Below, piece after piece: positions 1-12,362 of a DNA stretch of 64,000 nt. A model generated the notes under the pieces. It worked only from the letters and a program-made list of their open reading frames with translations, was not told the origin of the DNA and did no database searches. This stretch comes from Perna viridis (lineage: Eukaryota): contig CM074516.1 in the NCBI GenBank assembly GCA_037379345.1, positions 47,777,626 to 47,841,625 of the forward strand, read 5' to 3'. Every line of letters starts with the position of its first letter. Position 1 is the first letter of the stretch. The position numbers and the translations under genes were made by a program.

Positions 1-1908
1 CAGATAAAGATATTTTTAAGTTTTATTAGCCGTAATAAATTAAAAATGTAATTTGCATAAGTACTCTAGTTGGTTTATAACATTTTGTATAAATTAATTA
101 AAACAATAAAACAAATAAACAATAAAATATTATGTGTAAACAGTTGTCTATTTCGTCGTAAGCTTTTATCATTTGTGGATTTAAGGTTAAGAGAAAGAAC
201 AATAAAAATAAGGAATAAGTTTTTTTCTTTTTTTTTTAAATTGTCTTTGATTGTATATTCTACTGAACAATTTAAAGAAATGTCTAAAAAGAATAATTGT
301 TGATTCGTTGGTTATCGTTCCATACAATTTCAATAAATATTTGCCTTTTATAATTGGCCAAACAATAACTATATGTCTAAATACACACTCTAAACACCAC
401 CGCGCTACCATTGATAGAGGTTAAAGTATTTCCCTTCTTTGTTGCTAGAGGAAACAGATAAATACTTTCACTCTTCAATTCACGAGAGCATTCACTTGGT
501 ATCCTTATTTTCTCTTTAAATGTTATTACTTCCTGATTGAAATCTTGATAGATAAATATTTTTAACATATGTCATTTGATAGTTTAGTACTTTACATACT
601 GACATAAGCCTAGGTAAGTATTTGCATATCCGTCACAAACAGTTAATCTTTTTTTAAGCACTTCATAACCATTACGATGAACTTTGATGCTCTTATTCGG
701 GATATACTCAACATTGTACCTACAATAAAATTATGAATTTCAGCAATTTTGCTAAACATTTTAATTACAAACAACATGAAAAAAGCAAGTGAAAAAAATA
801 AAGTCATGAAAAATATGTGGGGATTTAAAAGTATAGGTTTCAAGCAAACGAATTTATTGCGATCTTTTTTGTTCATGAACTATCTTAATTCTTACCATGT
901 GAATTACATTTATTACGTATTTTCATCCTCACTTTTTATTGATATTGGCTCTCCATAACTTTCTAAAAGTAACTAGATTTTATTCAAAAAGACAAAAACA
1001 CCTTCGAATACACGTCCATGTCACTGTTATGATAAAAGTCAGGCAATGCTTAATGAAATTGAATACCATAGATTTTTATATGAAATATTTTGATATTTTG
1101 CATTTAACACTTCGGTTCTCTACTCCTCGTATTTTTTTTTCAAAAAAAGACAAAGAAATCAGTTATTGTTCATAACGGAGGAATAACAGTATTGAAGAAA
1201 TCATTAAATGAGAAACATCCAAATACGCCGGTTTGTTTTGTTTTTTTTTTTATTATTATTATTTTGAAAAAAGTACGTGAACTAACGTATTTTCTATCAT
1301 GGCTTTTAAATAAAAAAAAATCGTCCAATTAGGGCCCAAATACACATGACTTTGGAATACACACTGTCTTCTCGACTGTCATGCATTTAACTTTAAAAAA
1401 ATCTTAAAATGAACGAAAAGAAGGAACATCTGTTAATATAAGCTTATAAAATTTGTCTCATTCATTTTTCGTTTTGTTTTCTTCTTTTTCCATTATGCCA
1501 AATTATTTTCATTTATTGTATTTTATTACCTTATGTTTTTACAAATCCAGACATAAAACAACCATGCCATCTCTCGTTCCGTTTTTGGACGTTTTTATTG
1601 AGTACTTTGCGAGCGTTTCAAAAGATTCTTCATCAGGTACCTGTATTGATAAACAATTAATACGTCTACACACATATAAATATATATGGATATATATTAA
1701 CATTTGTATATGCATGAGCAGTAAAGGAAAAAATGATTGCATTCCTTTTTTTGTTTTTGTTTTAATATTTATTTTTTAAATTCATCTATTTATTTTTGGC
1801 GGATAGTTTTTTGTTTGTTTGTTTGTTTGTTTGTTTGTTTGTTTTTTTTTTTTTTTGTGAGAATAATAAATAAGTGAACAATAGCCATGCTTAAAAGGTA
1901 AAAAGGAA

Positions 1909-2045
1909 TTACATACAAATAAAATATAAATAAAACGGAAAACATTAGAGAATATAGGCCCAAATTTTCGGTGTTACGGCCTTCATCAGGGACAAAAGAA
2001 TCGAGGAGAAAACTGATATCTGCCAACCAATGCCACAGGGAGAGA
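1909..2045 (-). mobile_element. Inverted pseudo-LTR copy of the same PLE family
   Basis: Reverse complement aligns with 2836-2983 (ctgtgg..ggttggcag..ccctgaYgaaggccgtaa..aaatttgggcc..tattct..atgtttt). Confidence 0.8.
1958..1993 (-). ncRNA. Minimal type I hammerhead ribozyme motif (second copy, stem II eroded)
   Basis: GUCC-CUGAUGA-A-GGCCGUAACACC-GAAA-AUUU-GGGC. Confidence 0.6.
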
Positions 2046-2059
2046 GGCTATCCGAACAA

Positions 2060-2983
2060 AGTTCAGGATCGAGCGACCAATTTCCTATATTAAGAGGGTA
2101 AAAACACGAGTGACTGTGTTCCTTTGGTCTTGACATATCATCCTTACAATGTTGCAATCCAGAATATCCTGATTCGCAACTTTAAATCCATAGTTCATAG
2201 AGAAGAATACATATCGTCAGCATTCAACGATTTGCTTCCAATTACTGTCTATAGAAAAGGAAAGTCTGAAAGCTCATATTGTTACGAGTTCTTTCAAGAT
2301 TGTCACTAGACGCCCCCTGCCAATTACAAAGGTACACGGCACTGTAGGCGACCACGCTGTTCGACTTTCACTTGGAAAACTGACGAGGTCGTCGGGCCAG
2401 CCAACGTCTTTAAGTTAAAGATGGTTTCACCTGTACCTCAGAAAATGTCGTTTACGCTGTGGTTTTCAAACCTCGTGGGCGAGACCTATCGGAGGTTGGG
2501 TGATCGTTTTGTAGAATAAAAACAAAGCGTCACCAATAGATATGATTGTCAAGTCGGTGAACATTTTCGGGAGGCATACCACAGTGTTTACGACATGAAA
2601 GTAACACTCCTTTTGGAAACATGTTCAGACGTAAAACAACATAAGTTGTAGAACAGCGTATTATCGGCTTTCTTGGGACTGCCCACCCCTTTGGAATGAA
2701 TTTCAAAACCTTAATTTTTTAGTCAGCATAACCCGGTTATCAATTGCTTTTCGTCAGCTTACATACAATTTTATACTTTTTCATCTTGAAATTGACGCAT
2801 CTTCACAATGATCAAGATCGATTTTGAAGGACACGTTGTCTCTGTGGTATGGGTTGGCAGTTGCACATGGTTCATACAGTTTTCTTCTCAATACTTTTTG
2901 CCCCTGACGAAGGCCGTAAGGCTAGAAATTTGGGCCCATATTCTTTCATGTTTTACGTTTTATCTATATTTTATGTGTGTGTA
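2060..2983 (+). mobile_element. Degenerate Penelope-like retroelement 3' part: linker, Cys knuckle, GIY-YIG endonuclease, pseudo-LTR
   Basis: Frameshifted translation VPLVLTYHPYNVAIQNILIRNF...GTRHCRRPRCST...FTCTSENVVYAV...VGETYRRLGDRFVE...QVGEHF...HSVYDMKV...EQRIIGFLGTAHPFGMN matches the PLE C-terminal GIY-YIG pattern; followed by a hammerhead-bearing noncoding repeat. Confidence 0.85.
2900..2935 (+). ncRNA. Minimal type I hammerhead ribozyme motif (PLE-associated, possibly degenerate)
   Basis: GCCC-CUGACGA-A-GGCC(GUAA)GGCU-A-GAAA-UUU-GGGC: stem I, catalytic core CUGANGA/GAAA, stem II. Confidence 0.65.
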
Positions 2984-3101
2984 GTCCAGATAATTGATTC
3001 GTATCAATTCATAATTTTTGTTTACCTTTTTATTACGATTAAACATCGAGTTCCTATTGGCATTATCAATGGCCATAGGTCTCTATATAGTTTTTTTCTG
3101 A

Positions 3102-3591
3102 CAACTCATACGTTATGCCAGAGCTTGCCGAAACTATGCAGACTTTTTGTATCGAGCTAGAACTCTAACAAATAGGCTTCTGGCACAGGGTTATGTTGCT
3201 ACAAAATTGAAGTCATCACTACAGAAGTTTTATGGTCGTCATCATGAACTCGTGGATCGTTATGGTGTATCCATCTGCACCATGAAAACTGATTTATTCA
3301 ACGATTCATAGTTTTCCTTTCCTCGTGTGGGTATCCCGGTCTGGACTTTTTATGAACAACTCGGTGGGTGTTTCTAGAAAAGCAGAGGACGCTTACCCTA
3401 CCGGTGCACCTGGTCCATGCTCCCAGTTTTTAGTGGAGTCCGAGTTGCTCATTTGCTTTTGTTACTTTGTATGTATGATTTTAGTAACTTCATGTTCTTT
3501 GTTGTGTATGTCTGTTTTCCATGTCTGGTCTTTGTCCTGGATTACATTCTTTAGATTACCACTATAACCTTGGTTCTCTTGATTGCTCTTT
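3102..3591 (+). mobile_element. 5'-truncated Naiad-like PLE: RT thumb C-terminus plus 3' noncoding terminus (copy 1)
   Basis: 3102-3311 reads [69 protein letters not shown]; RT ends without a C-terminal endonuclease; close copy at 38686-39117. Confidence 0.8.
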
Positions 3592-4106
3592 AAAAGGTTT
3601 ACGGTAACGATTAAATATAATCAAATCTTCAAAAAGCAAAGGGATCAGGTCTTTATAGAGAACAAACGCATTTTGAATTTCTTGACGTGTCGGGAACCGT
3701 TTCTTATTCAATAATAATATCATGACAAAACGAGTGTTTGGAAAATTGAATAATTTTACTTATGCAGTAACTTTATTTCTTCATTTATTTGACTTTACTA
3801 ACACTATAAACCTTCCGTCACAACACGATTTCACGTGCAGAGTTTGATCGCTTTACAAAAAGTTGGATTACGTTTCAATACGTTACCGTACGTGCTTGCA
3901 AACAGCTACCAAGGTTACTGTTCTTGATTAAATGACTGTATGTGTTTTACAATTTTTATCAGTTTGCTTGTTCTTTTTTTTTTCGTGAAATAAAAACACC
4001 ATTTAAAAAACGGAAAATCAGTATAAGTCTAACAGCGTTTCTCTTTTAATAACGGAAAACAGCATACACTTCAATACTAACTGTTTCATGTAGACAAATA
4101 AAAGAG

Positions 4107-4316
4107 CCCCGTGCAGGTCCGGGTGTTAAAAGAATAGGCCTGCTGCAGCGCTAAGCTTGTCGTAAAAGGCGACTAAATAGTGCTCAGAAGCCTAGCCGGC
4201 GGCTAGGGCGCTCTGCCCACAGAGCAACTGGGATGTGTGCCCCAGGTGGTGGAATGGGGTACCCCTGGCGTGTTACATGCTGGGGTTGTCAGGCTATAAT
4301 ACCGGTATAGACAGAC
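4107..4316 (+). other. GC-rich, multi-hairpin interspersed element (SINE head or non-LTR 5'UTR-like structured RNA)
   Basis: Consecutive stems GCAGGTC/GGCCTGC, AGCGCTA/TAGTGCT enclosing GTCG/CGAC, CCTAGCC/GGCTAGG, GCTCTG/CAGAGC and CTGGG/CCCAG in an AT-rich background. Confidence 0.55.
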
Positions 4317-5766
4317 CTTTCGAAATTCTCGAAAATAAATCAAATCATACGTCGTTTGAAAATCGGATAAGGTCGCCTAAAATCATTCACTTTTTCCCGA
4401 CTTTGCATTTTCTTATAAGGCAGGCTGCAGCGTCTAGAGTCAGTTTTGAAAGTCAGATGGTGTATCAGAGCTTGGGTCAATTAAAGCTTTTATCACTGTA
4501 GGATATGATTAAGATCTAAAATACACGACTTAGAAAGAAAACAACCATTGTACCCATTTTTAATTCATGAATCACTTAGTTTGCATGATTCTTACATGGA
4601 CTGATACCTAACTACATCAAAATAGAAATCTTTATTGAAAAAAAGATTCATAAAAGGGGACGTCCCTATGATTCTGGTATATTCTTTAAAAGATTCGTGT
4701 ACCACCTCTATTCTAATGTGTCAATAATTACAATAGTATAATATGGTCACAACCCTCGAAATAAAGGCCCCGATAATAGACATTTATCTGAGGTTTTGTT
4801 TTATCTCCATTCAAAATCACGAGCATTTTTTTTAAATTTCGTTAGAACTATGTGTATTTTTAAAATATAGTAATTATTTTTGAAGTGACAATAACACGAT
4901 CATACATTTGAATACAATATTATAGTTTAGAAATATAATTGTGAGAATTTCATTTCGTGCATGCCAAGTAATTATGATTGAGCACAACAAGCGATCCCTT
5001 TGCGTCATGCTTGAATGCTTTATGTGGCGATAGGTAGTCATACGTTGATAGGTAGAGATACGTAATGTCAAAATGCTATTGTTCTCTAATATACGAATGA
5101 CTGAATCTTATAATAATATTCTCTGTACGTTTTTCTTACTTTTCTACTGCTTTTGTTTGGTATTTTGTTTCATTCGTTGTTTTATATGATTGGGATTCTG
5201 ATATTTGGTTGTATTCGACGTCGTCTGCAGTGTTCTTTGACTTGTTATCAACAAAGTTTCAGTCGTTTTGTTCTGAGTTGTGTGAATTGTTTGCAAAATT
5301 CGTTTTTTTATTATATGAATACATGGATACGATATGTCATGTCAGTTGTGGATTGTTTCAATTTGTCTAATGATGGATGTGTAAAAGTAAAAGCACAGCG
5401 TAAAATTTCAACAACATTAATTAGATTTAATCGTATATTTGGTCAAGTAATTGTTATGTAATATGAAAGTGATTGAACCTATCTCTGATAACCCATAGTT
5501 TCTTTATAACATCATATGTAACGAAATAACACGTCTTGAAGAGATTTTTCACAAATGTGTCTAATTCTTTTCGAGTTTTTATCAAATATTCGAGGAATTA
5601 AGGTTTCAGAGAAATATGTTATTTTCGGTCTTATCCTTAGACGTAAATTTTGTAAAAATAAGTCTGGTGTTTTCTACTATCTATGTTTCTTATAAAAATT
5701 ATGAATATTCCTCTTCTGATTTGATACTTTATAGTCTTTATATAAGTGTAACTGTGTCTGTCTCAC

Positions 5767-6245
5767 GATTATCCATGTGGACTTCGAGCATACTTCTCGT
5801 TTTTATCCATGTCTCTTCGGAGCTTTCCTTTTACTACTATCCATGTACCTTTGGAGCTTTCTTCTGATTATAATCCATGTCTATTTGGAGCTTTCTTCTG
5901 ACTATAATCCATGTCCCTTTGGAGCTTTCTTCTGACTATAATCCATGTCCCTTTGAAGCTTTCTTCTGATTATAATCCATGTCCATTTGGAGTTTTCTTC
6001 TGACTATAATCCATGTCCATTTGGAGCTTTCTTCTGACTGTAATCCATGTCCCTTTGAAGCTTTCTTCTGACTATAATCCATGTCCCTTTGAAGCTTTCT
6101 TCTCGTTATTATCCATGTCCTTTTGGAGTGTTTTCTTATTATTATCCATGTCCCTTTGTAGCTTTCTTCTCACTTAACATTATTATTCATGTCAACTTGG
6201 ATCTTTCATCTCATTATTATCCATGTCCCTTTGGATCTTTCTTCA
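5767..6245 (+). repeat. 34-bp minisatellite, ~14 copies, eroded at both ends
   Basis: Unit taatccatgtccctttggagctttcttctgacta. Confidence 0.92.
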
Positions 6246-6842
6246 CTAAAATATTGTTGAATCCTTGTTTCGGATTTTTAAATTTCACAATAATTTTATG
6301 TTCAGCGGGATAGTTTTGTGATTTACAATTGATCGTTTAATTGTTAAATCTGCAAGAGATGATACAGACCCTTTGTGTATTTACTGAAAAAAAAACTGCG
6401 TTTAATTGCTACGCAAATAAATACTGCTTCACAGACAGTGGTGATGCATCACAAAGCAATTCAAAGTCAATGGGAATACGTTATATTATTAATTCTGTTT
6501 TTATACTTTTTGACTAGTAATAGTTCATTAAAATTTTGCTACAATCTTGGTTCCCTTAAACGTAAATGGTCGCCTCTCGTTAATTTTACGACCTATTTTG
6601 GTTGTGGTTCCCTAACAATTCAAAAGATTTGTGCCATTGTTTTCTTCTTTTGTTTATCGGACATAATTTACATAACTTGTTGGGTGCTTTAACTTTTGCG
6701 TCTGGTAGTTTTCTTTTTGTGTTGTTTTGTCTTGTGTTTTACATTGTATTTCATTTTGTTCGTATCCTTTTACAAATGTTGCTAAACGAAATATTCATCA
6801 TTAAATTTATGACGTGTTCTCTTGAAATAATCTCAGTTTGAG

Positions 6843-7195
6843 GGATTACCTAAATTGAATCTACCCAAATGAACTTTGAAATTAAAGAGCCATGTACATG
6901 ACGTTTGAAATCGAAACGTTATGACAAACGTAATGATTGTGACTTCCTAATGGTAAACTTTCCCTTTCTTAGTGGGAATATACAAACATCTCCAGTCTAT
7001 GGAGTATTCAATTCACTGTTGTTCAGTAACTGTTAAGCCTGTGATCTGTACACGGACTTTCTCTGCAGAGCACGGATATTGTTGTATAAACTTCTCAATC
7101 AGCCTTATTTAATACCATCACTGCAGAAGTTTTGTGGTCTTCACCATAGTTCAATTGACTGATATGAAGTTTCTATCGAACAAATGAGATATTTT
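6843..7195 (+). mobile_element. Old Naiad-like PLE RT remnant
   Basis: Degenerate IYPNEL...YDKRNDCDFLMVNFPFLSGNIQTSPVYGVF...ACDLYTDFL..RAR...KLLNQ...SLQKFCGLHH. Confidence 0.75.
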
Positions 7196-7944
7196 CCATT
7201 AGATTCCACGTCTTCCGGTATTGACAATCTACAATACTTGATACCTACTAGCTTAAGTGGTGTAGCTCATTTGTCATAAGTGTATTGGAGCAAGTCAAAG
7301 GATTCAATACAGCATCTTTTTTTTCAAATGCAGTTACACTACCATCATGTGATGACAATGAAGTAACACAAAGATACATTTCTTTTCCTTTGAAATCTTC
7401 TATTAAATTCTTGACATGACATTATTTTTTCGCATTAATTATTGCTATGTTTTATTAAGGTCAAGATGAAATAATGCTCTGGCGTTTTTTATCAATTTAG
7501 TTGATATTATTTTATGATGATATTTGATTACTTTTAGTTAAATTGTCTACTTTGATAATTCTACACTTTTTCCGAATTAGTTACTATATTTTACATCATG
7601 AAACTTTGTTTAATTAAATGATATCGCCCAAATGTGATTTTTCATGGGTCACTTTATAACTCGTTTCGGTGGCTGCATTTTTGTTGCTAGACTCAACCGG
7701 ATTACACTCACTTGCAATATGACGGGTGCCGCTTGTGGAAGACATGCTTACCTTTCAGGTGCACATGATGTCACTCCCGTTTTTTTTTTTTTTTTTTTTT
7801 TTTTCGTTATCTTCAGTTTCATATGTAATCTAATTTTATTTTATTCGCTTCATTATGTATGTGGATTGTCTTTGTTTTCTGTTTTCACGTTCTAGTCTAG
7901 CATTTGCTTTTTGACGTATTTGAATTGTTCGCGGTTAGGTTTTT

Positions 7945-8490
7945 TTTCGATATTTATTAAAGTATTTGAAGGACATGTGTTCCACCAGACCAATTGGAAA
8001 CACCAATTGAAATTGTGGAAATAAAATGTGTGCCAATTTTACAAGGTTTCTGAAGAAAAAAGACAAGCGACTAACCTAGAACTTCAATTCCAGTTTTTGT
8101 ATACAGATGATGCATTATCTTATTATTCTTTTGATTACCGCTATAACCTTGGTTCCCTTGATTACTCTCTCTCAATAAAACTAATTTTAAAGATTACTTA
8201 TATCAATGAACTTGTTGCATATGAAAAGACAATACACTTATACACCTTCTTCTGATTGTTACTTATACCTTAACATTTAATGCGATGATACGCTGAAGAT
8301 AGAAAATCGAATAACTAATCGACAGTAAACATACCTTTTCTTAGTAGCAATATGTGGCATACATTTCACAGTTGGTTCATTACTTATACACTGACGTTAT
8401 TCATAGTGCGAGGGTGCTGTCAAATAAGCTTCTAAAACAGGGATGTGTAATGCCTTTATCGATATCATTACTAAAGAAATGGTATACTAG
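7945..8490 (+). mobile_element. Old Naiad-like PLE RT core remnant, interrupted by a 3'-end fragment (8124-8170)
   Basis: Degenerate ...LKKKDKRL..NSSF.YTDDALS (YxDD motif) ... PFLSSN..AYISQLVHY..ARVLSNKLLKQG. Confidence 0.65.
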
Positions 8491-9627
8491 TACTCTAAAC
8501 ATTGTGAATATCTATCTATATCTCACAGTTGAGACACGCTCAGTCTCTAAAAGACAATTATCGAACTTGAATCCGGATTTTTGAAAATCAATTTATTGTA
8601 TTTTCGGTTTAATTTTTATTTTTTACAATTTCATGGTATATTCTTATGTTTGTCTACATTGTGTTTGTTTTATGGTTTAGCATTCTCGCCATATATTTGA
8701 ATTTTGATGTCTCTGAATTGTCCTGATGAATGGAAAAATGAACATATGTGTTGATGTAATTATGCAGTTCATAAAACCAAAATTATGTATTCATTCGATT
8801 TTTTTTTCGAAAAGGAATTATATAAGATGGAACAAAAACAATTAATCAAATATTGAGCAAACATCGACAATATGTGACTCATTTGTGATTTTTTAGTGGC
8901 AAAAGCCCTCATTGTCAATTAGTGTTCTGAAAAATGCATGAACATTATTAAAGGACGTGTAGTTTATCGACAAATCGTTTTCTTTCACAAAAAGTCTATA
9001 ATATGAATATGAACAAGTCATATGAGTCCCTCGAATTATTTCCTTCTTTAAAAGAAACTGATCTGAAAAAAGTACTAACTTATATGTAAAAATAATCAAT
9101 AAGATTCTAGCAGAAATCAAAATCGAACTGTGTCTGCATCGAGTCAAAATTCAAATGTTGTGAATTTATAATCTAAATAAAAATAAATATATGATAATCA
9201 GAACTACACTATATATTTACCGAAGCCTAAAAAGGTAAGAACTGTCCACTCTCCTTACTAATTCAACAATACTTGTATATGTACCTATCTAGTCCTCGTT
9301 GTGTCTGGGGCACTAGGATAGTGGGTACAAACTGGAGCTTTTCTCCAATTTCCAATTCGGCCCTTAATATTCATCTAACACTTGTTTCGCCCAAGGGTAC
9401 AAATATGGTAAGTGCTATATGCTAACTATTATGTGCTAAAATATAATACTCGCTTTTTGGGTTTTTTCAAGTTTAAACAATTCCATTCGTATTTTGCAGT
9501 TTTTCTGTTGCACTAAGACGCCATTAGAATAATTTTATGGTTCACATAATTCAATTAAAAACGAATAACATAAAAAAATATGAATGCTATCGACAATAAT
9601 TTCCTCTTTCGTTCACAAACCATTTTT

Positions 9628-9666
9628 TTCTTCTTCTTCTTCTTCTTCTTCTTCTTCTTCTTCTTC
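9628..9666 (+). repeat. (TTC)n microsatellite
   Basis: ~13 units, ~300 bp upstream of the TLR start. Confidence 0.95.
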
Positions 9667-9970
9667 TGCACGAATGACCTAAAATTGTATAAATATGATG
9701 TGAGGAAGTTAGTATTTTTTTCCATTTTTTTGCCCTTTATTCTGTGAAGAGATCAATGTTCATGTCCGTGTATACTTATATGCTATTATAATTTCAGTCT
9801 ATTTTATGATGATTTAATAGTGGATTTTGGTCTTAAGTATTCAGAATATCTGTTATTTCCGAATATCTGTTATATTTTTTAAAAATAAAGATGTGAAGAT
9901 GTGAATAATCAACAAGGACTTCAACAAGTATTTCTCTCGTGTTTATTGTATATCAACAACATGAAATCAT

Positions 9971-12362
9971 ATGTCACCTACTGAGTGTGGATTTGTGTTT
10001 GTGATTTGTTTGAAGATTGCTCTTTCACTCAATACTAGCTGTGTCGTTACCACTGTGAATCACACGATTACAGCTAATTGTAGTTACCAGAATCTTACCT
10101 CTGTACCGAATGATTTAGACAACAATAAACAAGAACTGAACTTGTCATGGAATCTTATTACAGCACTTCAAAATTGTTCTTTTGTTAAGTTGGTCCATCT
10201 TACAGAGTTAAAGTTACGTCATAACAGGTTGAGAACAAGTGAAGTTGAAGCCTTCCGTAATCTGGGAATGCTGAGCAAGTTAGATATATCAAGTAATTGG
10301 TTCACTGACATCAACACTGTTCTGGTTCCTGGGATCTTTAATCATATCAATAACTTAACGACATTAGATATTCGATATAACATGGACATCAAAGCTTCTA
10401 TGTATCCGTCTAAGGCGATTTCCGAGCTAGCACATTTAACCGATTTGTATATGGACCTTGTTCCTAATCCGATTTTTGGTAAAGAGTTCAAGCGTATGAA
10501 ACATCCTCAAGTTTTGTACTTCGATTACTAGTATATCTAATTCAACACTAGTCAACTTTACCGCTGACGATAACTGAAATTCATATGATAGTATGTCACA
10601 AGATTAAAAATGTAGAATTCAGCTTTCTGTCGCCAATTAAAAATTTGAAAGTTTTGAATCTAGCAGATTCATATATATGGTTGAAAAAAGCACTCGCCTT
10701 GCTTTATCCTCTTGCAAATTTAGAGTATGGATGGTATTAATTTTCAACATGGGAACAGAGGTCGTTCAGTAGAAGAATATTTTCATGCAACAATCGTCAG
10801 CAAAAAAATGATGCAATACCTTCGAACTATCTGTGTGAAAACGTTGAACTTATCTGATAATGACATTGTTGATTTCGAGGAACATTCGCTTTTTTCGTAT
10901 GATCACCCAAACTGTCTGGAGAACGTGGTCTTTTCGACAAACCGGTTGACATTGGACACTAATAAAAAAAAAAGGTTAGAGTTGTATATTTGATTTATAA
11001 TGCCGTCAATATCAAGCTATTCGATTGTTCCTATGTCCGGACAGAAAATGAGCACTATTTCTAGATTCCGAATGGAGCAATAAAATATCAACCAACTTAT
11101 GCGAGATGTGAGGCTTCTAGGGGAATGGAATTTCGTGTAAATGCACCTCCAAAACTACACACACTACGCATATCGTATGTTTTTGTAGATTTGTGCGGCC
11201 AAAGTATTTTTGTGGAAACTGCTGCATCATTGGAGTTTCTAGACATTTCAAGCTTGCTTTCCAAGAATATTCTAACCTTACTTTCACTGACAACAGTATT
11301 ATAACGTTTTTAAATCTAACATCGGCCAAGTTTTGTTCAATCGATACCATCTACTATTGTTGCCAAATATGACGGTGCTTGATTTATCACATAATTCACT
11401 AATGACATTGCATAACGACGCATTTGGAAAGAAATCAAAGCTAAAGAAATTAATTTTATCTCGCAATTTTTTTGCAGAAATTCCATCGGCCGTTATGGAT
11501 TTGCATAATCTAGAATATTTGAATTTGGATAACAACAATATACAATCGCTTCCGGTCAAATTCACTAACTGGCTGTACAGCAATTCCGCAAAAAGAGAAG
11601 TTCAAGTCTGTATGGAAGGGAATAGCTTTATTTGTAATTGTGACAACAAAAAATTGTAAAATGGGTTTATAAAACTAATGTTGTTAAGGACAAAAATTCC
11701 ACATACAGATGCAGGTATGCCAATGGAGATGTAAATGATATGGAGGATATAAATAGAAAGTATCATGAACTGTTCTCTAAATGTGATGCTTCCTTTTTGA
11801 TCCAGGTAGGTGCAGCCCTACTAGTAGCATTTTCTGTCGGTGTACTTGTCGTGGCTTTAATATTCAACTTCCGCTGGAGAATAGCTTACTACATTTACAG
11901 AAAATTCAAACTGGTTCTTGAATCGGATATGGAACTGAACTTCCGTTATGATGCATACGTTTCCTATGCCGACGACAGCAAAGACTGGGTATAAGATTTT
12001 CTAGTAAATAAAGCTGAGAAAAAATGGGGTCTTAAACTTTGTATTGATTAAAGAGATATCAGTCCAGGCAAATCGCTGATCAGTGGAATAGCTGAATGTA
12101 TCCATGCAAGTCGCCAAGTTCTCTTTATTCTTACTCCAGAACTTCTACAAAGGGAAATAACTAGATTTGAAATAGAACGAGTGGTTTACGAAAAGGCAAA
12201 TAATTACACACAAATCACTTTGATTAACCTAGGAGTAGAGGGGAGCAATTTACAACAAGAATTCTCGCCTATATGACAAAATGTACGTCTTGTTGAACCA
12301 AAGACTCCATTTTCTCTCTCGGACATCGCTTGGGGGAGTTGAAGATGAGATTAGTACAGTGA
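9971..12362 (+). pseudogene. Intronless Toll-like receptor pseudogene (single-cysteine-cluster type)
   Basis: Signal peptide, LRRNT (NCSYQNLTSVP), LxxLxLxxN repeats, LRRCT (GNSFICNCD), TM (LIQVGAALLVAFSVGVLVVALIF), TIR box 1 (YDAYVSY) and BB-loop (LKLCID*RDISPG). In-frame stops at 10529, 11062, 11992, 12049 and 12274, plus several frameshifts (~10720, ~10970, ~11300, ~11655, ~12335). Confidence 0.9.

Follow-up and report, generated by a model that had tools for sequence, protein, structure and literature searches.

A covarying RNA pseudoknot at the head of a Perna viridis SINE, shared with LINEs and RNA-virus contigs

Introduction

The LP SINEs of molluscs were described by Matetovici et al. 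in 2016 (PMC4758252). In the available text of that paper, these SINEs share their first ~70 bp with the 5' ends of three LINEs, two of the Nimb type and one RTE element (the domain is named in Nimb-17_LMi, I-3_DR, and RTE-9_CPB), and in oyster SINEs the LP head takes the place of the tRNA head. A promoter was presumed for the head (LP, "LINE promoter"), tests of it were called for, and the head was compared with the 77-bp promoter-ribozyme of L1Tc; the treatment is one of sequence only, with no structure. The same text names no mytilid family (the word Mytilus has no match) and no viruses. How SINEs and LINEs with neither a Pol III head nor a known ribozyme obtain full-length RNA is an open question.

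We analyzed a 64,000-nucleotide stretch of the Perna viridis genome (GCA_037379345.1, contig CM074516.1, positions 47,777,626 to 47,841,625), referred to below as the window. A first-pass annotation, made from the letters alone, had described 4107..4316 as a compact island of adjacent RNA hairpins, a candidate self-cleaving or structured retroelement leader. The follow-up reported here identifies the start of the island as an LP head, describes its RNA fold, and traces that fold into other retroelements and viruses.

Results

A search of the P. viridis genome with 4080-4330 as the query gave 1,259 candidates, and identity over query positions 25-223 was 96-100% in the 40 that were scored. A 21-nt core that the first-pass annotation had placed at the head of mollusc repeats is indeed abundant, with 7,485 exact genome matches and a further 124 to a one-letter variant. 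The repeat is a non-coding SINE of ~510 bp whose full copies run past 4302 to a (CAAA)n or (CAAT)n tail; exact target duplications of at least 8 nt (mode 12, mostly 11-14 bp) flank 57 of the 87 full-length copies. ARAGORN found no tRNA gene at three of three loci, and no B-box match was found in the one copy checked. By eye, 4106-4181 matches scallop and snail copies in figures S2 and S7 of the PMC4758252 supplement, as far as these are available, so that the head is a known sequence domain. Judged by its head, its target duplications, its tandem-repeat tail, and the non-tRNA nature of the head, all features of sequence, the family is a member of the LP SINEs.

The window holds the 5' 197 nt of this LP-headed SINE on the plus strand (4106..4302), which align with positions 1-196 of a full copy at 98% identity; the end of the body, the tail, and a second target duplication were not found inside the window. 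The copy differs from the family majority at 4144, 4190, and 4200, all outside stems, and its unique upstream flank received no reads in a 19% sample of one RNA run. It is an ordinary, inert, 3'-cut SINE fragment, and the interest lies in the motif that it carries.

Several arrangements of the repeat were seen along the way. Another common repeat, well covered by RNA reads, adjoins the window copy at ~3050-3590, and elsewhere (L016) a copy of that repeat has received a SINE insertion. A minus-strand (CAAA)n run with no SINE body lies at 1810-1843. The SINE is often clustered, in or beside its own copies and in both orientations (L013, L026, L028, L043, and L254), and at one locus (L413; G000:C1:9835986-9837518) four copies stand head to tail with a 504-bp period. 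More diverged copies occur at L039, L050, L032, and L037, in which G-C replaces an S2 pair (see below), as A-U also does in L039; they suggest an older subfamily with compensated stems.

The 5' end of the SINE is sharp. In 33 of 57 copies the target duplication is separated from CCGT by exactly GCC, the element beginning 2 nt before stem S1 (see below); for loci chosen without regard to flank similarity the count is 19 of 35. We considered a cap-derived G as the first base and disfavor it: the 5'-most base is G in this family, A in the L123 family, and absent in the scallop copies of PMC4758252 that are available, and such variation between families argues against a cap origin. No LINE with this head was found in the P. 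viridis genome at the pattern-match loci examined (30 of 124 and 30 of 46), all of which are SINE copies. A partner LINE sharing the SINE tail was likewise not found among 7 Nimb-like copies or 30 reverse transcriptase loci, for which the best 64 of 5,271 and 142 of 3,639 candidates were scored.

The head itself (4106..4185, plus strand) scores 57.1 bits (E 2.4e-12) against R1, a model built from nine sequences that were picked for intact, matching geometry and include none from this genome. All features of the fold are on the plus strand. It begins with an H-type pseudoknot, in which a short stem S1 (4-6 bp among elements; here 4108-4111 with 4120-4123) is followed by a single U, a 7-bp stem S2 (4113-4119 with 4137-4143), no middle loop, and an A-rich third loop. 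The single U (U4112), predicted to form the one-base loop L1, is invariant in all nine sequences; the third loop, L3, ends in the conserved AGAAUA (4131..4136), which is predicted to pack against S1. Downstream, helix P3 (4147-4153 with 4178-4184) closes a conserved internal loop, and within it stands the nearly invariant hairpin P4, GUCG-UAAAAGG-CGAC, with four pairs, a 7-nt loop, and a following UAA (4159..4176; pairs and loop, 4159-4173). This invariance is partly built in, because the pattern search selected loci by P4; relaxed pattern scans turned up no locus that combines the pseudoknot with different P4 pairs, and among 80 loci examined the pseudoknot was present in none of 74 other loci.

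Folding energy alone does not distinguish the island from chance. The z-scores are -1.16 for 4100-4320, -1.62 for 4106-4245, and -0.70 for 4106-4186, the last two from a program that cannot form pseudoknots, and Rfam gave no relevant match in window positions 1-12000 or in 10 loci with the intact motif. With z at chance level and no Rfam match, one sequence by itself is not proof of a structured RNA. Comparison with other elements does lift its first 80 nt above chance. A metagenome pattern scan returned at least 120 loci, and together with nine loci from bins and two viral loci 135 matches were listed; removal of those with short flanks or >75% identity left 65. The word AGAAT, which unlike P4 lies outside the search pattern, occurs 20-36 nt upstream of the pattern in 42 of these 65 listed non-redundant loci; two control windows gave 3 and 2 of 65. 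In 9 of the 42 families the seven bases after AGAAT pair at all seven positions with the 5'-proximal 7-mer, where swapping partners gives 1.5; pairing at six or more positions is found in 19 of 42, versus 8.9 after swapping. None of 500 partner swaps reached either observed count, to which we attach no probability value because the families are related.

Compensatory changes are found in all three helices. Among the nine R1 sequences, all seven S2 pairs and two of the four S1 pairs are changed on both sides, S1 is paired in 94% of cells, and sliding the register drops pairing from 90% to 32-48%. Among 69 model-fitted sequences, every S2 pair and four of four modelled P3 pairs are changed on both sides, and P3 is 81% paired; at least 5 bp of P3 can form in 34 of the 65 listed loci, versus 8.2 after shuffling. 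S2 cells contain 42 G-U or U-G combinations versus 17 A-C or C-A, and the strand-specific G-U pairs on which the first-pass annotation had based an RNA-level structure thus have a counterpart across elements. We conclude that 4106-4185 is a conserved, covarying RNA structure, a pseudoknot plus an internal-loop hairpin, as read from aligned sequences. Every stem of the original description, from 4108-4111/4120-4123 through 4228-4232/4241-4245, does exist at its position; the pairing of the 5' CCCG with a CGGG loop is a real pseudoknot, and covariation, proposed as a check, is present across other elements.

The island as first drawn stands only in part, the conserved RNA being confined to 4106-4185. 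The three hairpins of the SINE body (4191-4207, 4210-4225, and 4228-4245, plus strand) are family specific, have no functional evidence, and receive no support from comparison: 4186-4302 has a folding z of -1.04, sequence after 4186 recurs outside the SINE family in 1 of 129 metagenome or MAG loci (L100, itself a member of the same family), and departures from the hairpins within the family (108 copies) are mostly single changes. Homology to the family stops at 4302. The description as an unclassified structured RNA also needs qualification; the motif belongs to no Rfam family, and its sequence is the LP domain, as far as PMC4758252 documents it. No description of the fold as a structure was found in the literature searched, which was mostly without subscription journals, Repbase reports, and figures. 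The head is a known sequence domain with an undescribed RNA fold and a surprising distribution.

That distribution begins with LINEs. The motif heads LINE ORFs in L110, L131, L156, L163, L164, L216, and L220, in elements to which clade names (RTE, Nimb, R4-like) were given from architecture alone. Those of L156 and L164, and the partial ones of L110 and L131, have a single endonuclease-reverse transcriptase frame; L216 and L220 have two frames; and in L163 the motif heads a reverse transcriptase frame that lacks the endonuclease domain and is inserted in (TAA)n. By sequence, the fold is therefore at the head of LINEs of three architectures, RTE-like, Nimb-like, and restriction-type. The proposed identity as a retroelement 5' leader is thus borne out at SINE and LINE heads alike, and a lead into an RTE-like ORF is seen in other elements; the window copy leads into no ORF. 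Tandem copies stand at element heads in L110, L206, and L069; those of L206 and L110 are arrays of the bare motif with periods of 74 and 76 nt.

The P. viridis genome has a Nimb-like LINE with another head. This family (L252-L258; for example L253:1753-7823, G000:C12:15112252-15118322) is intact, 6.07 kb long, and young, its copies being 99% alike, and encodes an ORF1 of ~490 aa and an ORF2 of 1,247 aa (endonuclease, reverse transcriptase, and RNase H). Its first 65 nt have an HDV-type look by eye, with an imperfect P3, and the leader of L253 was matched neither by Rfam nor by our own HDV descriptor. This different head precedes the same downstream UTR word as in L216 and L220, which indicates that heads are swappable modules. 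A second module of the leader resembles the motif hairpin by eye; kinship was not supported, as R1 gave no match up to an E value of 10.

Bacterial copies were also considered and rejected, the nine matches of the GTDB scan looking like animal DNA in bins or being core-only (L214 and L221). Animal-type LINE or SINE DNA is seen in L216 and L220 (LINE ORFs), L215 and L219 (microsatellites), L213, and L217; it probably reflects chimeric contig ends or contamination by host DNA.

Viral contigs gave nine matches: six of the full motif near a contig end, one in a 212-kb DNA virus, and two core-only. The six near-end matches represent five distinct contigs (L261 and L266 are near-identical). In all five of these small contigs the full motif is in sense orientation, separated from the last stop codon by 10-105 nt and from the end of the contig by 27-119 nt. 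Four of the five encode RNA-virus Pfam domains (RdRP_4, RdRP_3, Peptidase_A21, and nodavirus capsid); the fifth, L260, had no Pfam match. Tandem pairs of the motif occur in the virus tails of L260 and of RNA-virus contig L429. A motif carried by RNA viruses has to function at the RNA level, and the presence of the same covarying fold in their tails rules out a purely DNA role. In the DNA virus, an AT-rich contig, the full motif (L091:2957-3030) lies between genes; a 959-codon frame that has no Pfam match opens with its ATG ~150 nt downstream.

A variant with perfect pseudoknot stems lies between the genes of a phage-like contig (L426:2490-2563, minus strand; the same DNA is in L430). It scored 34.1 bits against a model built without it, a score that is not significant for a collection of this size; the flanking proteins had no PHROG match, and no relatives of the variant were found. 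From its sequence it is a possible phage copy of the motif.

Transcripts were examined in one ordinary RNA-seq run, a weak source here, since many copies are decayed or mutated and such libraries show ends poorly. At least 454 reads extend from unrelated flank across the 5' junction into the SINE, with local depth near 600; read-through RNA is therefore present and escapes efficient cutting. The run had no end pile-up and no site where a fifth of molecules begin. Sense depth rises from 371 to 574 over 4108-4139 versus 235 to 291 for antisense, a hint only, for which 5'-cut copies could account. Sense reads of the SINE are about twice the antisense reads; a similar bias towards one strand is seen in the flanking repeat.

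Known ribozymes were sought individually. The HDV-like architecture, a nested double pseudoknot P1-P2-P3-P1.1-(P4) with a catalytic C in J4/2, gave no descriptor match in 4080-4320 (8 of 100 shuffles match); the same descriptor missed the HDV-looking head of L253 and so is not exhaustive. Hammerheads have a CUGANGA and GAAA core, and twister ribozymes an L4 loop motif with two pseudoknots. No CUGANGA is found in the window stretch or in a full copy; the twister L4 pattern is absent, and Rfam was negative. The pistol ribozyme has a P1 loop pseudoknot of ~6 bp and a conserved linker; both its sequence pattern and a loop pseudoknot are absent here, and Rfam was again negative. The pistol resemblance noted by the first-pass annotation, and membership in the HDV-like, hammerhead, or twister classes that it mentioned, are accordingly not supported, and self-cleavage of the island finds no support in an RNA run that reads through the 5' junction.

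Discussion

We think it on the whole probable that this ~75-nt fold has been traded among three kinds of LINE and their SINEs, unrelated RNA viruses, and a large DNA virus, with a phage as a further possible carrier, and that by itself it makes RNA 5' ends, either as a new nuclease-blocking RNA or as a new ribozyme class. If it blocks a nuclease, promoter-less retrotransposons would get an exact start from a fold, and the fold would be the first retrotransposon xrRNA, with an architecture new among xrRNAs; if it cleaves itself, it would define a new class of ribozyme. With more than 7,000 copies in the genome, many in transcribed RNA, either activity, if real, could shape the decay of host RNAs.

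Our tentative first choice, to which we give not quite an even chance, is that the fold blocks 5'-3' exoribonucleases, as a putative xrRNA of an undescribed kind, and thereby sets the 5' end of the element. SINE and LINE copies would be transcribed from an upstream start or as part of host RNAs. Degradation of the host portion by an Xrn-type enzyme would then stall one or two bases ahead of S1, and the unit-length RNA left by the stall could be copied back by a LINE reverse transcriptase with its head intact. Since full SINE copies all keep the whole fold, any processing would have to occur at or before the first base. Such a block would be a passive version of the job done by HDV-like ribozymes in other LINEs, and in viruses it would leave a protected 3' fragment. 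Several observations fit: the element starts 2 nt before S1, tandem copies occur both in virus tails and at element heads, swappable heads with this fold serve LINEs of three architectures, and a roadblock tolerates uncut read-through RNA. Against these, a simple H-type pseudoknot is not generally regarded as able to stop Xrn1. The most conserved bases are in the downstream hairpin, away from the 5' end, and would suit catalysis or ligand binding equally well, and the RNA run lacks the preferred start site that a block might leave. The position in virus 3' UTRs is where known xrRNAs lie, as the accessible parts of PMC12397905 and PMC10520033 describe them; it also suits a translation enhancer or a replication signal, and the secondary structure fits none of the xrRNA classes described there.

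A self-cleaving ribozyme of an undescribed class, cutting at its own 5' edge to free the element from read-through RNA, would account for the sharp 5' end and for invariant loops set between covarying helices, and would occupy the same place in LINEs as the HDV-like ribozymes of R2, RTE, and L1Tc, according to the accessible parts of PMC6765202 and PMC3383444. Bare motifs in head-to-tail arrays (L206) and the possible phage copy (L426) would be in keeping with it, and RNA-virus UTRs do contain ribozymes, although hammerheads in the 3' UTR are called exceptional (PMC13725137). We nevertheless consider it unlikely: the fold has no known ribozyme core, cutting at the motif would cost a virus its last 100-190 nt, and the junction-spanning reads are uncut with no pile-up of ends, though most copies are mutated.

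About as doubtful is a fold that binds ribosomes, an initiation factor, or a polymerase and enhances cap-independent translation from the 3' UTRs of viruses and the 5' UTRs of LINEs; SINEs would borrow the head to meet fresh reverse transcriptase, as is thought for tRNA- and 7SL-derived heads. The invariant exposed loop, the placement before LINE ORFs and before the 959-codon frame of the DNA virus, and the substitution for the tRNA head in oyster SINEs (PMC4758252, available text) are as such a role would have them. It would by itself leave the 5' ends 1-2 nt before S1 unexplained, and resemblance to described enhancers, compared via Rfam, was negative. That the head is only an internal DNA promoter with incidental pairing, as the LP name proposes in the available text of PMC4758252, would fit its 5'-terminal position, the missing tRNA head and B box, and the twofold sense excess, but we hold it to be very improbable, since compensatory changes in S1, S2, and P3 and full copies in RNA-virus contigs are beyond what a DNA promoter can explain and the flanking repeat has a similar strand excess. 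The head may still have a dual promoter-plus-RNA role like that of Pr77.

Among known systems, the pistol ribozyme is a superficial likeness. A hairpin followed by UAAAUAG-UGCU is shared in this one SINE family; that run is unconserved in other families, where its place is taken by the 3' strand of the covarying P3. The viral xrRNAs of classes 1-3 and coremin, as far as PMC12397905 and PMC10520033 present them in their accessible parts, are likewise compact (pseudoknotted), placed at the start of the 3' UTR, found in unrelated RNA viruses, and sometimes tandem. The motif differs in having neither the three-way junction of classes 1 and 2, nor the stem-loop with apical-loop pseudoknot of class 3, nor the coremin hairpin. 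The accessible text of PMC12397905 describes no xrRNA at a retrotransposon 5' end (the word retrotransposon has no match). With the HDV-like ribozymes of R2, RTE, and L1Tc/Pr77 the motif shares its nature as a short pseudoknotted 5'-tip module of unrelated LINEs and their non-autonomous derivatives, and the location of the whole fold 3' of the first base of the element (PMC6765202, PMC3383444, and PMC5786205, accessible parts); it lacks their nested double pseudoknot, having nothing between the 5' strand of S2 and the 3' strand of S1, the site of P3/L3. Closest are the LP SINEs, as the available parts of PMC4758252 depict them. The body between head and tail is particular to the Perna family, whereas both have a ~70-bp LINE-type head (which by eye has the sequence of Pan_3 and of the scallop "Nimb-17 homology" block), a body that contains a Nin-like GCACGTTAAAGA word (also by eye), target duplications, an AATATA hexamer before the tail, and a tail of short tandem repeats.
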